From: Mucinivorans hirudinis
Lineage (GTDB): Bacteria; Bacteroidota; Bacteroidia; Bacteroidales; Rikenellaceae
Assembly: GCA_000723505.1 (NCBI GenBank)
Contig: HG934468.1
Span: 504,798 to 528,797 of the forward strand
DNA length: 24,000 nt
Direction of reading: 5' to 3'
The notes beneath the pieces are model-generated. The model searched no databases. It saw only the letters and a program-made list of their open reading frames with translations, and had not been told where the DNA came from. Numbering within the stretch: the first letter of the stretch is position 1; every line of letters begins with the position of its first letter. Of this stretch, positions 4,520-14,559 are shown one piece after another. Position numbers and translations under genes: made by a program.

Positions 4520-4582
4520 GTAGGCTAAGCATCCGCTGCCAGTCACCACATTTCTGTGGTAGGATTGCGGATACTCGCCCCC

Positions 4583-4616
4583 GAACCGTACGTACATGTC
4601 TCCACGTATACGGCTC
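4583..4616 (-). ncRNA. Group II intron domain V (intron 1)
   Basis: GAGCCGUAUACGUGGAGACAUGUACGUACGGUUC. This is the canonical 34-nt domain V with the AGC triad and the GUAC...GUAC helix, 19 nt downstream of the IEP stop. Confidence 0.9.
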
Positions 4617-4634
4617 TCCATTAATATCATCAGC

Positions 4635-9141: not shown

Positions 9142-9660
9142 TTATTTACCAAGAAGGCGACCTGAGATATTTCCTGCTGCCGCACCTGCTCCGGCTCCTG
9201 CCATTGAGCCTGCTTTGCCAGCGGTTGAGTTGACATTCTTGCCATAATTGCCTGCACCACCCGATTGGATAATCCACCCTGCTACGGTAGGAATGGTGAA
9301 GTAGCCGATGATGCCGATAATCATAAATACCAGATACACACCGTTGCTCGCTTCAATCGAAAAGTTGGGGTTATTCTGCAATTCGGATATATCGTTTTGG
9401 AGCATCAAGACTTGAATTTTGGCAAGTATGGAGCTGAACAGATCCGACACGGGTAACCACAGATAGACCGAAATGTATCGTGTTATCCATTGAGTTAACG
9501 TACTCTGGAAACCGTCCCAGACCGAAATTGCGAAAGCGATTGGTCCTAAAATGGCAAGGACAATCAGAAAGAAGGTGCGGATAGTGTCTATCACGAGTGC
9601 TGCTGCCGCAAAGAGCAGTTCGAGCAGCTCTCGAAACCAATCCCTCATCGACTTTTTCAT
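9142..9660 (-). pseudogene. traJ: traJ 3' fragment (C-terminal ~170 aa of TraJ)
   Basis: MKKSMRDWFRELLELLFAAAALVIDTIRTFFLIVLAILGPIAFAISVWDGF... is the conserved second half of TraJ. An IS separates it from the first half. Its ATG lies in the duplicated ATGAAA. Confidence 0.85.
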
Positions 9661-9931
9661 CTGTGTATATTTTTGTATTAATTTGTATAATAGCTATTTA
9701 AGGTATAATTAAGAGATTAAATTTTCATCTTCGTACTCCGTGCCTATAAAGGCAGTGGTAACACCTGTTGGTTCTTAATTTTGTGCCCAAATCTCTTTGG
9801 ACATAGGTCAATTTCATACTCAAGCTCTTCTAAGGGAAGTCTCAGAAAAAATGCGACCTATGTTGTTGCCTTAAATATAATGCTTGCTTAAAACGAAATA
9901 AAAAATGTAGCTTGGTGAGATGCAGCCCATT
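9661..9931 (-). ncRNA. Candidate bridge RNA / seekRNA in the 3' non-coding end of the IS110-family element
   Basis: A 270-nt non-coding stretch lies downstream of the recombinase. It holds three copies of the flanking hexamer ATGAAA. It has a 10-nt identity to the left junction (9809..9818 = 11231..11240) and a 9-nt identity to the right junction (9722..9730 = 9654..9662). An 8-bp stem CATAGGTC...GACCTATG encloses one of these matches. Confidence 0.45.
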
Positions 9932-11157
9932 TCATAAAAATACACTAACATCAACACCTAATGCCGATAAACGATTCAAATAGTTCCGTATCTGCTTCTT
10001 CTGCTTGCGAGGATTTTTGTCGTGTAACTCAGGCTCACGATATGGTTGTTTGTTCAACAAAATGAAGTATGCGGCTACAATAATTTTATGCCCAATGGCT
10101 ACAAGTGCTCGCTTCTTACCTCGTCTGCCTACCAAACTCTCATACTTTCGCTTCAAATAGCAATCCTTCTTACGTGTCGCCCCCCACCCACACTCTACCA
10201 ATATCGAAGTAATATGGCTATTACCCTTTATGGTCTTTGTACTTTTTTTTTACCGGCACTCTCATTATTGCCCGGACTTACACCACAATAAGAACTTAAA
10301 TGGTTCTCATCAGGAAATCGTTCCATATCAACACCTATCTCGCTTATAATACCAATGGCACTATCTCGCCCAACACCCGGTATGGTCTCTAATAGCTCCA
10401 ATTCAACTTCATAATCAGAAACAGCCTTGGCTATTTCTGCATCCAACCGCTCTAACATAGCGTCATCATTAGCTATCACATCTCGATGAAACTGCAACAT
10501 AAAACGATGATGATAGCTAACCTTACCTTGCAAAGCTTTGACAAACTCACTACGAGGCGTCTTTATCTTGCCGTGATAAAACCGCATTAATTGATTTACA
10601 TCACTCTCTCCATCTATCAATGCACTGATGATATTGCGACCAACGGCTCCATCAACATCACTCAATACACTTGATAACTTGATATTGCAATCCTCCAATA
10701 TCTTGATTATACGATTCTTCTCTGATGCACTATGAGCTACTAACTTCTTCTTGTAGCGAACTAAATCTCGTAAATCTCTTATGTCGCGTGGAGGGATAAA
10801 GCTACCCTTGAGTAGTCCGCTTACCAATAATTTGCTCAACCATTTGCTATCCTTCTTGTCGGTCTTATGACCAGGCACATTCTTTACGTGCCGAGCATTA
10901 ACCAAAAGAACCTCAAAATCATCCTCCAAAATATTGAATACAGGCTTCCAATAAACACCCGTGCTCTCCATTGCAATATGAGTTACGCCCTCATCTTTGC
11001 ACCAATCTCGCAACGATTCCAATGAAACGGTAAAACCGTCAAACTCCTTTGTGCCGACAACTTCGTTGCCTCGCTGAATAGTTGCAACTATCAAATCCTT
11101 ATGGACATCAATCCCGCAACCAACCCCAATGTAGGGGGTAAATAGTATCTCTTCCAT
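9932..11157 (-). CDS. IS110-family DEDD/serine recombinase (transposase), split by a frameshift in an A9 run
   Basis: N-terminal RuvC-like motifs GIDVHK, MESTGVYW and HKTDKKD are present. The C-terminal domain reads ...GVSPGNNESAGKKK then continues in the -1 frame as STKTIKGNSHITSILVECGWGATRKKD... ORFs 10228..11157 and 9932..10201 join at the homopolymer 10243..10251. Confidence 0.85.
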
Positions 11158-11224
11158 TGAACATAGTGTTAGTTAATCAATAGGCAAAGATACTCATCTC
11201 TGTTGGTATGCTCAAAATTTGAGA

Positions 11225-11734
11225 TTATGACAATTTCATATTATACATACCTCGTTCGATATACATCCCCGTCATCGTCATCATATCACCCGGACTCCAG
11301 CCGAGTTCTTCCAACTGTTTGTCGAACTCCTCATTGGAGACTAAATAAGCTGTTTCGGGATTACGCATCATAGCTTCGTATTCGAGTTTATCCTTTTGTT
11401 GTCGGTACTTGTTCATATCCATCGTCTGCGACTCAAGCATCTGATGTGTACCTTTGACAACAGGCGACATTACGCCGTTAATCGTTCCAAGCACGAGCGA
11501 GGGGAAGAACATAATGCAGATGCCGATAGCAAATGGACGGAGCATTGGATATACATCAATCGGTTCGGCACGAGCCAAGGATTGCCACACACGGGAGGCA
11601 ACATAAATCAAGGCTCCGAGTCCGGCGATACCCTTTGCGATACCTGCCATATTGCCGCACAGGGGCATCATCTCTACATACAGATTTCGTAGAATCTGGT
11701 GCAGGTTTGAAAAATCTACTGATAACATCATCAT
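11225..11734 (-). pseudogene. traJ: traJ 5' fragment (N-terminal 167 aa of TraJ plus 2 IS-derived codons)
   Basis: ...FSNLHQILRNLYVEMMPLCGNMAGIAKGIAGLGALIYVASRVWQSLARAEPIDVYPMLRPF...GMYIERGMYNMK is the conserved first half of TraJ. The frame then reads L-S-stop inside the IS. Confidence 0.85.
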
Positions 11735-12169: not shown

Positions 12170-12210
12170 GTCGGGTAGGTCGGGGACATTGCTGTCCCTT
12201 TCCCCCCTAA

Positions 12211-12244
12211 GAACCGTACGTGATACTTTCGCATCATACGGCTC
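12211..12244 (-). ncRNA. Group II intron domain V (intron 2)
   Basis: GAGCCGUAUGAUGCGAAAGUAUCACGUACGGUUC. This is the canonical 34-nt domain V with a GAAA tetraloop. Confidence 0.9.
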
Positions 12245-12281
12245 AAGCAACTCAAAATTCATAATATGAATTTGACTCATT

Positions 12282-13949
12282 TTATCTTCCATTTTTATTA
12301 GACTTCATTCTCCATTTGCGGCAATCATCGTGAAACAATACCTTTTCCGTTTTGCCGTTTACCAATCTCTCGGTAATACTCCACGGGGTGCTTTTTCTGA
12401 TAGGTTCGCCACAAATTACACATCTGCGTTTTTGCTTTTCCCACATCCGTACAATGACACTTTTGCCATTGGCTGATAGCAACATTTGACGGGTTTCCCT
12501 CTTGTCAAAGTATGCTTTCCAATCGGTGTCATAGGGATTGGCATCGCATTTGAGTTTGGCATATCGGGTTACTTTTGTGTCAGATAACCTTTTGACAGAG
12601 TGGTAAGTCACTGCTCCGTTCTCTTGGTGTTTTACAGCAAAAGTCCAGCTTCTGCCTCTGACGTTGTGGAAATATTTATCCGCAACCCAATGTTTCCCTT
12701 TGGCAGGGTGTCGCCTTAACGACCATTGCATAAGTTTTCGATAAATCTCGAAATCCATTCTTTGGAACGTCTTTGCAGTAACACAATGCTTATAGTAGTT
12801 TACCCACCCCGTTATTACGGGGTTGAGAAGTCGGATTAGGGATTCCTGCGGTATAGCTTTATGGTCATTGATAATGCCCCTTAACTTTTCGAGGAATTTC
12901 TTTTGTCCTGCCTTAGAGGGTTTGATTAACAGCACTCCTTTGTACTTACGAATGTTGAAGCCAAGAAAGTCAAAACCTTCGTCAATGTGAGTTATCTTCG
13001 TCTTCTCTTCTGATAGGGTAAGTCCCCGTACTTGAAGAAACTCTTTGACCATTGGCATAATCTCTTGTTCTAACATCTCCTTGTTTCTGCTGGTGATTAC
13101 AAAATCGTCGGCATAGCGGATGAGATGTACTTTCGGGTAGTACGACCTTTTAGGGCTGTATAAATCGACTCTCTTAAACTTTTCTTCGAGCATTGTTTGC
13201 AAGCCGTCAAGGGTAATATTTGCCAGAGTTGGGGAAATGATGCCTCCTTGCGGAGTACCCTCTTCTGTTGGGAAAAGCTCATTGTTGAATACGAAGCCGC
13301 ATTTTAACCACTTTTGTAGCATCACCCTATCCATAGGGATATTGTTTAGCAGCCATTCGTGGCTAATGTGGTCGAAGCAACCTTTGATGTCTCCCTCCAA
13401 AATCCATTGCGGAGATGATTCTTTTGACAGATTAATGAAGCATTGATGAATAGCATCACCCGTACATCTCTCCTTGCGGAATCCGTATGAGTGATTGTCT
13501 GCCGTGGTTTCAGCCACGGGGTCTAATGCCATTAAATAAAGTGCCTGCATTGCTCTGTCTTTCATCGTTGGTATTCCCAATGGACGTAACTTCCCATTAC
13601 TCTTTTTGATATTTACCCGTCTGAGCGGTTGAGGCGTATAACCCCGTCTTTTGAGTTCCTTAATAGCATTAACTTTTGCATTTGGTGAGTGCCAAAGAAC
13701 TTTGTCAACTCCCGATGTGTTTTTGCCTTTGTTGGAAGTCACTCGTCTTATTGCCAATACTTTGGCATAATACGAGTGAGTGAGTATCCACTGTAAAGAT
13801 TTGACCTTACCGTGTTTACCCTCTTTTTGAGCCTTTACAATACGTGCTTGTAGCTTACGAACTTCAGTTTCGCACTTGTTCCAGTCGATACTTTCCCAAG
13901 TGGTTGACTTGCTGTCAGTAGATGCACACGATGTCTTAATTTCGTTCAT
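12282..13949 (-). CDS. Group II intron-encoded reverse transcriptase/maturase
   Basis: 555 aa. RT motifs include LRPLGIPTMKDRAMQ, SYGFRKERCTGDA, TPQGGIISPTLANITL and IRYADDFVITS. A maturase region (GWVNYYKH) and a short Cys/His C-terminus (CVICG...HDDC) follow. Confidence 0.92.
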   Translation of the reverse strand: MNEIKTSCASTDSKSTTWESIDWNKCETEVRKLQARIVKAQKEGKHGKVKSLQWILTHSYYAKVLAIRRVTSNKGKNTSGVDKVLWHSPNAKVNAIKELKRRGYTPQPLRRVNIKKSNGKLRPLGIPTMKDRAMQALYLMALDPVAETTADNHSYGFRKERCTGDAIHQCFINLSKESSPQWILEGDIKGCFDHISHEWLLNNIPMDRVMLQKWLKCGFVFNNELFPTEEGTPQGGIISPTLANITLDGLQTMLEEKFKRVDLYSPKRSYYPKVHLIRYADDFVITSRNKEMLEQEIMPMVKEFLQVRGLTLSEEKTKITHIDEGFDFLGFNIRKYKGVLLIKPSKAGQKKFLEKLRGIINDHKAIPQESLIRLLNPVITGWVNYYKHCVTAKTFQRMDFEIYRKLMQWSLRRHPAKGKHWVADKYFHNVRGRSWTFAVKHQENGAVTYHSVKRLSDTKVTRYAKLKCDANPYDTDWKAYFDKRETRQMLLSANGKSVIVRMWEKQKRRCVICGEPIRKSTPWSITERLVNGKTEKVLFHDDCRKWRMKSNKNGR

Positions 13950-14559
13950 TTGCTTTTCTGCTTTAGTAAGTTCTTAAAGTTTCTTGTAAAGTGTTACCTT
14001 ACGCGGAAGTCTGCCCACTTTCGTGTGGAGTGATGTCTCAACTCCTATCCGCTCCATTACAGAGCGACGTTCGCTTTTTCCGCAATCCTATACCCGCACT
14101 CCATTCGGCTTATCTTGCGACTTGCTTACCTATCAACTGATAGGAGAAATACGGGCTTACCACGTTTTACATAAGTGACGAATGAGTGACTTAGGTTCTG
14201 TCTATACACCGGCAGTCGTTGTGTCCGTGTAATCTCACAAGGTTCGAGATTATCCGACTGCGCACCATTTTGGTTCAAGCCTGTCAGCATAATTTGGCTT
14301 GTTTCATACGTTACGATGCGTCAATAACAGTTCATTTGCATTAACCATATCACTCAGCCTCGCTCCCCAACCCCCTAATGCTGGCGGTCATTGCTTCTGC
14401 CTCACGGCTTCTGCTTTTCCTTGCGGAAGGGCTACTTTGTCTGGGTAGCTTCGTACAAACCAATCACTTGAAATGCACGTACCCATAGGCTACTACTGAC
14501 GGAACAGTAGGTTTAATCTTGTTGTTAAACAATCACTTATGCAACTATACGTGTCGCAC

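Follow-up and report, generated by a model that had tools for sequence, protein, structure and literature searches.

An IS110-family element interrupting traJ in Mucinivorans hirudinis probably encodes a bridge (seek) RNA downstream of its recombinase

Two kinds of RNA-guided system provide the closest precedents for the element described here. The first is IS621, a member of the IS110 group, whose bridge RNA has been described in detail (Durrant et al. 2024, PMC11208160; Hiraizumi et al. 2024, PMC11208158). A DEDD/Tnp recombinase is served by a single RNA with a target loop and a donor loop, both internal. One strand of either loop corresponds in sense to the left flank plus the core and pairs with the bottom strand; the other strand of the target loop complements the right flank. 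Target and donor have the core in common, and the target is not duplicated. Each of these features has a counterpart in the element described here. The second precedent comprises the seekRNAs of the IS1111-type elements ISEc11, ISPa11, and ISKpn4 (Siddiquee et al. 2024, PMC11187229). Such RNAs derive from the non-coding region downstream of the transposase, and the stretch that complements the top strand precedes, in the 5′ to 3′ direction, the one that complements the bottom strand, as is also the case here (PMC11187229). The two matches also overlap in the target, again as in the present element. Short seekRNAs of 82–96 nt are the predominant form bound to IS1111-type transposases, and some IS110-type elements also carry a downstream non-coding region (Siddiquee et al. 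2024, PMC11187229).

We analyzed a 24,000-nucleotide stretch of M. hirudinis DNA, hereafter the window, in which an insertion sequence designated IS-A interrupts the traJ gene of a conjugative transposon. The 3′ non-coding end of IS-A very probably encodes a bridge (seek) RNA of ∼160 nt that is oriented in the direction of the recombinase and whose loops match the target and the right end of the element. Systems of this kind are already known from the 2024 papers, and NCBI names the protein family “RNA-guided.” What is new here is an uncatalogued RNA, a variant layout, and an unexplained donor feature. The recombinase, the guide RNA, the donor ends, and an interrupted target that can be reconstructed all lie in one window, which makes this a complete natural example, and three of its four guide segments are assigned by comparison with relatives. 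Related loci are labeled with L and a number.

IS-A occupies positions 9661–11233 on the minus strand, with a left end of 76 nt and a right end of 271 nt. It is bounded by copies of ATGAAA at 11234–11239 and 9655–9660, one of which belongs to the target. The proximal half of traJ (11234–11734, minus strand) has the 3′ end ...TATAAT-ATGAAA, and the distal half (9142–9660, minus strand) carries PF07863. When IS-A and one ATGAAA are removed, the rejoined gene encodes a protein that matches TIGR03782 over 1–323 of 323 positions with 598 bits. Since the rejoined TraJ is full-length, the insertion is precise, and ATGAAA is common to target and element. The core at 9655–9660 corresponds to internal Met-Lys codons of TraJ. 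Insertion is therefore site specific, with the core at both junctions and no duplication of the target.

Two copies of IS-A were examined, and the right junction is present in only one of them. The second copy (L082, on ENA contig ctg382 of another assembly) is 97% identical and has the same first base next to a different flank (CCTATGAT followed by ATGAAA), which likewise has T before ATGAAA. This copy and an IS fragment (L081) were the only loci recovered through cluster members of the window recombinase ORF, and a DNA search of a plasmid collection yielded no match. The second copy is cut off ∼40 nt before the stop codon by a Transposase_mut (IS256-like) element and adjoins a DDE_Tnp_1 element, forming an IS nest.

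The recombinase gene (9932–11157, minus strand) comprises ORF1 (10228–11157, 309 amino acids) and an extension in the −1 frame to a stop at 9932, for a total of 408 amino acids. The product contains PF01548 (E = 3e-27) and PF02371 (E = 5e-14) and has the N-terminal DEDD RuvC-like domain and C-terminal Tnp domain with conserved serine that are expected of the IS110 family. It scores 246.8 bits against NF033542, “IS110 family RNA-guided transposase” (cutoff 140), and distantly matches the IS621 structure 8WT6 (E = 4e-10). The motif GVSPGNNESAG is visible in its translation. Residues 222–305 also match NF052498 (TIGR-Tas RNA-guided endonuclease), although at 28.7 bits this is far below the cutoff of 100.

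The reading frame is broken at a run of nine adenosines (A9, 10243–10251) directly after the catalytic ES(A/G)G motif, so that an active recombinase requires slippage or frameshifting. The 408-amino-acid protein would result from a −1 shift at this run or from a single additional A in the mRNA; it aligns with its relatives (404–430 amino acids) over residues 1–404. Because ORF1 ends after 309 amino acids at A9, IS-A might be regarded as a dead relic with a frameshifted gene, whose RNA and guides are fossils of one past insertion; moreover, the 3′ end of the second copy has been lost to another IS. We consider this improbable. At least eight M. hirudinis copies all encode a product of the same 309-amino-acid length, and the run is found at exactly this codon position in about 25 other divergent Bacteroidota loci. 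Loci with A9 at this position include L005, L007–L009, L017, L018, L021–L024, L026–L029, L031, L036, and L037, and further L048, L059, L062, L070, L074, and L081–L092. In five relatives the run is an in-frame A10, and it is absent from distant ones. In addition, a 72%-identical family, IS-B, has the same split (305 + 112 amino acids) at no fewer than six different sites. This pattern is in keeping with programmed slippage rather than decay, and the A9 run looks like a site of programmed slippage or frameshifting.

In relatives whose recombinases are 44%–72% identical, taken from genomes and assemblies, the regions downstream from the gene align with 9862–9704 of the window. The putative RNA gene (9704–9862, minus strand, ∼160 nt) directly follows the recombinase gene and has a consensus structure of five helices with compensatory changes and two internal loops, as judged from 24–80 relatives. 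The target-binding domain, loop 1, is enclosed by the arms of P1 (9854–9862 pairing with 9802–9810, minus strand) and includes P2, which bears a variable hairpin. The donor-binding domain, loop 2, is enclosed by the arms of P5 (9774–9782 pairing with 9705–9713, minus strand) and includes P3 (UGUUAC/GUACG) and the variable hairpin P4 (together 9732–9763, minus strand). A linker hairpin, CCAAA...UUUGG (9786–9801, minus strand), lies between these domains and is confined to IS-A and its IS-B relatives; its arms read CCAAA/UUUGG in IS-A versus CCGUU/AACGG in L086.

Support for this structure comes from two alignments. In a MAFFT alignment of 24 sequences (A1), 83% of cells are paired and 92 double changes were counted; sliding the partners lowers the paired fraction to 31%–47%. 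In an alignment of 66 distinct sequences fitted to the model, 91% of cells are paired, with 353 double changes versus 104 in shuffles. The core pairs of P1 are kept through changes on both sides in eight of 24 sequences, P3 is 99% paired, and all six P4 pairs covary; P5 has changes on both sides at all 10 pairs, in an alignment fitted to the model. P1, P2, and P3 include invariant G–U pairs, which are compatible with the recombinase strand alone. A covariance model (R1) scores 108.6 bits at 9704–9862 and identifies 80 homologous sites adjoining related recombinases. Thus, the covariance analysis that the initial annotation had proposed supports five helices and a structured non-coding RNA encoded in the long non-coding end. 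That annotation had also predicted a stem closing its first junction match. This stem is present as a perfect 9-bp inverted repeat, CAUAGGUC/GACCUAUG (9855–9863 and 9801–9809), that is part of the minimum free energy fold.

No family match for the guide RNA was found in Rfam 15 at either gathering or permissive thresholds. A scan of the sequence flanking the RNA gave no sigma-70-like promoter or terminator, and in most relatives the RNA starts 4–60 nt after the stop codon. For these reasons, the RNA may depend on the recombinase transcript. A Bacteroides-like TATATTTA at 9872–9879 was considered as a promoter for the RNA, but no claim is made for it, as it is not conserved in relatives.

Short exact matches between this region and both junctions of IS-A had been noted from the window alone, together with three occurrences of ATGAAA in the region. 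Both observations hold. ATGAAA occurs at 9930–9935, 9812–9817, and 9723–9728, and also at the junction (9655–9660). The 10-mer TATGAAATTG is found only at 9809–9818 and 11231–11240, and the 9-mer AGATGAAAA only at 9654–9662 and 9722–9730, all on the minus strand. Matches of this kind could be chance repeats of an A/T-rich hexamer, or repeats bound by the recombinase as DNA, with no guide RNA involved. ATGAAA is enriched across the window (38 copies versus 25.7 expected), and among 100 shuffles of the window, two or more copies of the 10-mer appeared in three and of the 9-mer in 12. Because the matches are short and the fold of 9661–9931 has a z-score of −1.8 in the AT-rich window alone, their significance rests on the relatives. 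There, the five helices stay paired through compensatory changes, which points to selection on RNA and not on duplex DNA. Furthermore, the loop strands change together with the junctions of the relatives (0/20,000 permutations), and one strand is complementary and the other identical to the target, as expected for pairing with both target strands. An origin of the matches by chance or as DNA-level repeats is accordingly extremely unlikely. The third ATGAAA (9930–9935) overlaps the recombinase stop codon, and 9916–9936 is 76% identical over 21 nt to 11220–11240, which covers the left junction together with the first bases of the left end. Both features were set aside as specific to IS-A, since they are absent from relatives.

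To relate loops to junctions, the same best-match procedure was applied to cognate and permuted pairs, with 20,000 permutations. Junctions of single-copy loci were placed by best match, and the resulting bias was controlled by using the identical procedure in the permutations. A statistic based on strictly best cognate guides produced ties between guides whose only differences lie beyond the matched stretch; being uninformative for this reason, it was replaced by the whole-matrix permutation. The covariation of guides and flanks across copies that had been put forward as a check was found for three relationships, each at 0/20,000 permutations among loci of which many are contigs of metagenome-assembled genomes and in which related sequences are not independent. 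Boundaries and guides are confirmed by multicopy relatives (L012–14, the IS-B family L083–92, and L063/66/67). In two loci on contigs of metagenome-assembled genomes, L044 and L048 (a 1,951-nt contig), the guides do not fit their own junctions, and the two guides of L048 look swapped relative to its sister L059. These misfits could reflect chimeric assembly or recombinants.

The 3′ strand of loop 1 (AGU-AUGAAA-U, 9811–9820, minus strand) is the candidate left-target guide. Within it, UAUGAAAU is identical to the left flank, the core, and the first IS base: UAUGAAA corresponds to the left-flank T plus the core (11240–11234), and the last U to the first base of the element (11233). The corresponding strands of relatives include TATTGAAA, AATAGAAA, ATTTGAAA, AATATGAAA, GGATGAAA, and AAAAGAAA. 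Cognate strands and left junctions give a sum of 195, versus 147.3 ± 4.7 for permuted pairs (0/20,000). The base after the core (U or C), which was not used in placing junctions, equals the first left-end base in 27 of 27 elements, compared with an expectation of 0.56. The first match as originally drawn, UAUGAAAUUG, was slightly too long. Its UAUGAAAU portion stands as guide, core, and one handshake-like base, whereas the final UG lies at the start of the closing stem P1, where UUGRYY is conserved in all relatives, irrespective of their left end.

The 5′ strand of loop 1, CAUUUUUUC (9845–9853, minus strand), complements the last core bases and the right flank and is the candidate right-target guide. 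It pairs with the top-strand sequence GAAAAAGT, such that C9845–A9852 face G9658–T9651 through seven Watson–Crick pairs and one G–U pair. This is the U-rich strand that had been seen opposite the first match, and in relatives it does track the right flank by complementarity, with 108 Watson–Crick pairs versus 84.5 ± 5.3 for permuted pairs (0/20,000; 44 relative/flank pairs). Clear cases are L025 (AAGAUU/AATCTT), L042 (CGC/GCG), and L033 (GTCG), and in the three independent copies L063/66/67, UUUUUUGAC faces GTCAAAAAA. The target loop thus has two strands that match both target strands around the core. Since both strands of loop 1 combine, the guides of IS-A would specify ∼11 bp, T-ATGAAA-AAGT, a sequence that lies in the window at an internal Met-Lys-Lys of traJ. 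Such a target is unusually short and A/T-rich, and Bacteroidota genes typically start with ATGAAA(AA), encoding Met-Lys-Lys.

In loop 2, the 3′ strand (AAG-AUGAAA-AU, 9721–9731, minus strand) is the candidate left-donor guide. It contains AGAUGAAA, which is identical to the right IS end AG plus the core (9662–9655). The sum for cognate pairs of this strand and the right IS end is 160, compared with 108.1 ± 4.9 for permuted pairs (0/20,000). End and core variants in relatives are followed as well, as seen with CAGGGGAAA, CAGAGGAAA, CAGAAGAAA, GTGTGAAA, and GAATGAAA, and further with ACATGAAA, GGATGAAA, and AGAAAAAA. Core variants, which include AAGAAA, GTGAAA, and GGGGAAA, change together in loop 2, in the right end, and partly in loop 1. 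Both of the original matches therefore lie on the 3′ strands of the two internal loops, and in relatives the strand of loop 1 varies with the left junction and that of loop 2 with the right IS end. For the second match, AGAUGAAAA, the portion corresponding to right end and core is retained, whereas its final A is without a consistent partner in the right flanks of relatives.

A simpler arrangement would be that only loop 1 guides, as a short seekRNA, and that loop 2 is a protein-binding scaffold whose likeness to the right end reflects common descent of ATGAAA segments. The 3′ strands of loops 1 and 2 are alike in sequence, no canonical right-donor guide was found, and short (82–96 nt) seekRNAs predominate on IS1111-type transposases (PMC11187229). 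However, the 3′ strand of loop 2 takes the sequence of the right end rather than that of loop 1 in elements where these diverge (GTGTGAAA versus GGATGAAA in L012–14, and CAGGGGAAA versus ATTTGAAA in L045/L025), and cognate pairs again exceed permuted ones (0/20,000). We therefore give little credence to guidance by loop 1 alone and favor an RNA in which loop 2 reads the donor.

Homologous RNAs occur on either side of related recombinases. In 47 loci from Bacteroidota, Desulfobacterota-like, and related lineages, the RNA lies downstream, 4–158 nt after the recombinase match; this is the arrangement of the window and of L001–L042. Another 19 loci, which belong to Chloroflexota, Bacillota, one Methanocrinis, and others, have it upstream, 21–66 nt before the match. 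The upstream arrangement is that of L043, L046, L047, L050, L052–54, L056, L057, L061, L063–69, L073, and L076–78, and guides of this type again fit the junctions (L063/66/67).

The donor loop has a further peculiarity. Its right-end side is matched as described above, but left-end bases +1 to +16 are without a complement, and a sense copy is found at +19 to +38. When all RNA columns were scanned against bases +1 to +16 of the left end, no complementarity of the kind expected for a canonical right-donor guide was found, and for this reason the IS621 scheme explains the donor loop incompletely. Instead, in every element the 5′ strand of the element's own loop 2 recurs in sense orientation 19–38 bp inside the left end, where it is followed by (C)ATGAAAAT. 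In IS-A, this strand is AACCAACAGG (9764–9773, minus strand), and its sense counterpart is the left-end motif at 11200–11207. The subterminal module of the left end (11191–11223, minus strand) consists of the hairpin CTCAAATTTTGAG (11211–11223), the motif ACCAACAG (11200–11207), and then ATGAGTA. Both element types have, in their left ends, a module of the form N4-CAT-(hairpin)-CAC-variable-(C)ATGAAAAT (e.g., L043, L005, and L040), with the palindrome usually between the left-end start and the motif. The longest common strings of motif and loop 2 5′ strand sum to 118 for cognate pairs versus 81.8 ± 5.0 (0/20,000), and the same test on elements with upstream RNA gives 61 versus 49.4 ± 3.6 (75/20,000). 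No reverse-complement copy of the motif was found within the elements. The A/B boxes of ISPpu9 (PMC12288879) were considered as a precedent for the motif but are not comparable.

Two readings of the left-end motif can be offered. In one, the RNA would pair with the subterminal site through its bottom strand while the palindrome is looped out. In the other, the left end would serve as a regulator that mimics the donor loop, either as DNA or as an mRNA leader. It is conceivable, although we regard it as rather doubtful, that this clade reads its donor in a manner unlike that of IS621, through the sense copy of a motif 19–38 bp inside the left end, and that bridge-RNA “end-switching,” with the RNA gene downstream in one clade and upstream in its sister clades, is traceable as a shift of the crossover point. 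The motif is also a possible extra donor determinant, so far unused in the engineering of bridge recombinases.

Covariation among relatives demonstrates, at the sequence level, the RNA structure and three guide/junction relationships, and the insertion into traJ is precise. We propose a scheme like the IS621 mechanism, with the order of the loop strands reversed. The RNA would be transcribed, possibly as the 3′ part of the recombinase transcript, and would form a complex with the recombinase. The 3′ strand of loop 1, UAUGAAA, would pair with the bottom strand of the target, and the 5′ strand, CAUUUUUUC, with the top strand GAAA/AAGT (core plus right flank). The 3′ strand of loop 2, AGAUGAAA, would pair with the bottom strand of the joined ends, probably in a circular intermediate. 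The DEDD/Tnp recombinase would then exchange strands within the shared AAA or ATGAAA, and exchange within a shared core would account for insertion without target duplication. We infer the exact crossover only to this extent, since the loops of distant relatives share just AAA, GAAA, or AG, which does not place it within ATGAAA by sequence.

Several features set IS-A apart from IS621. Its RNA is 3′ of the recombinase, whereas that of IS621 is in the left end, and the order of guide strands within the loop is reversed. Target and donor share the long ATGAAA in IS-A but only a CT dinucleotide in IS621. The handshake-like base of IS-A is on the bottom-strand guide, whereas the handshake guides of IS621 adjoin the top-strand guides. 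In IS-A, furthermore, no right-donor guide was found that would complement the first bases of the left end, and its recombinase has 408 amino acids rather than 326–328.

An IS1111-type layout had been suggested for IS-A, and this is correct for the position of the RNA and the order of the guides, but the results do not support placing IS-A in the IS1111 subgroup. IS-A has the downstream long non-coding region with an RNA whose top-strand match is 5′ of the bottom-strand match. However, two of the four hallmarks of the IS1111 subgroup that were checked, the inverted repeats and the transposase length, are not those of IS-A. No subterminal inverted repeats (7–17 bp in IS1111) were found between the ends of IS-A or in the aligned ends of relatives, and its transposase has 408 amino acids rather than 330–350, with the catalytic motif G--P----SAG. 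A further difference from the IS1111 type is the homologous RNA located upstream in sister clades of IS-A. The upstream RNA and short right end of the IS110 subgroup are likewise not features of IS-A, although they are seen in its Chloroflexota and Bacillota relatives. IS-A fits the downstream minority of IS110-type elements (PMC11187229). The split between IS110 and IS1111 is blurred, in that neither the position of the RNA nor the order of the guides is tied to it; a single covariance model locates the RNA before or after recombinases with 44%–67% identity. Relatives such as L008/L009 and L025/L045 resemble the IS110-type ISEc21 and ISMch6, whose seekRNAs (PMC11187229) also show retargeting between relatives by few guide changes. 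In contrast to IS-A, the RNA of those elements is upstream, and the strand matches are in the opposite order.

Relatives tend to insert at the right ends of one another, a form of self-directed insertion that yields head-to-tail arrays. In L011, three copies lie head to tail, with junctions at 849, 2368, and 3887. At L008, L017, L024, L027, L059, and L060, the right end of another family member forms the left flank, and a left end may form the right flank. L008 and L009 mirror each other, in that the target guide of each matches the right end of the other.

The IS-B insertions (L084, L085/86, L088, L089, and L090) mostly have a core ATGAAA that is the start codon and first Lys codon of a downstream gene. 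These genes (MKK...) encode a sulfatase, a saccharopine dehydrogenase, and lipoproteins, and their ORFs are intact but severed from the upstream region.

A metagenome scan with the 22-nt right end returned a 24-nt exact copy of the right end plus core of IS-A, ACAAAAATATACACAGATGAAA, in two unrelated contigs (L093, 1381–1404; L094, 7602–7625), with no IS attached. These copies could be natural target-like sites or solo remnants.

The conjugative-transposon region of the window also holds an ORF for a reverse transcriptase/maturase of 555 amino acids (12282–13949) with a YADD motif. Group II intron RNA domains were detected on the minus strand, with RF02012 at 14363–14511 and RF00029 at 12170–12246 and 4520–4618.
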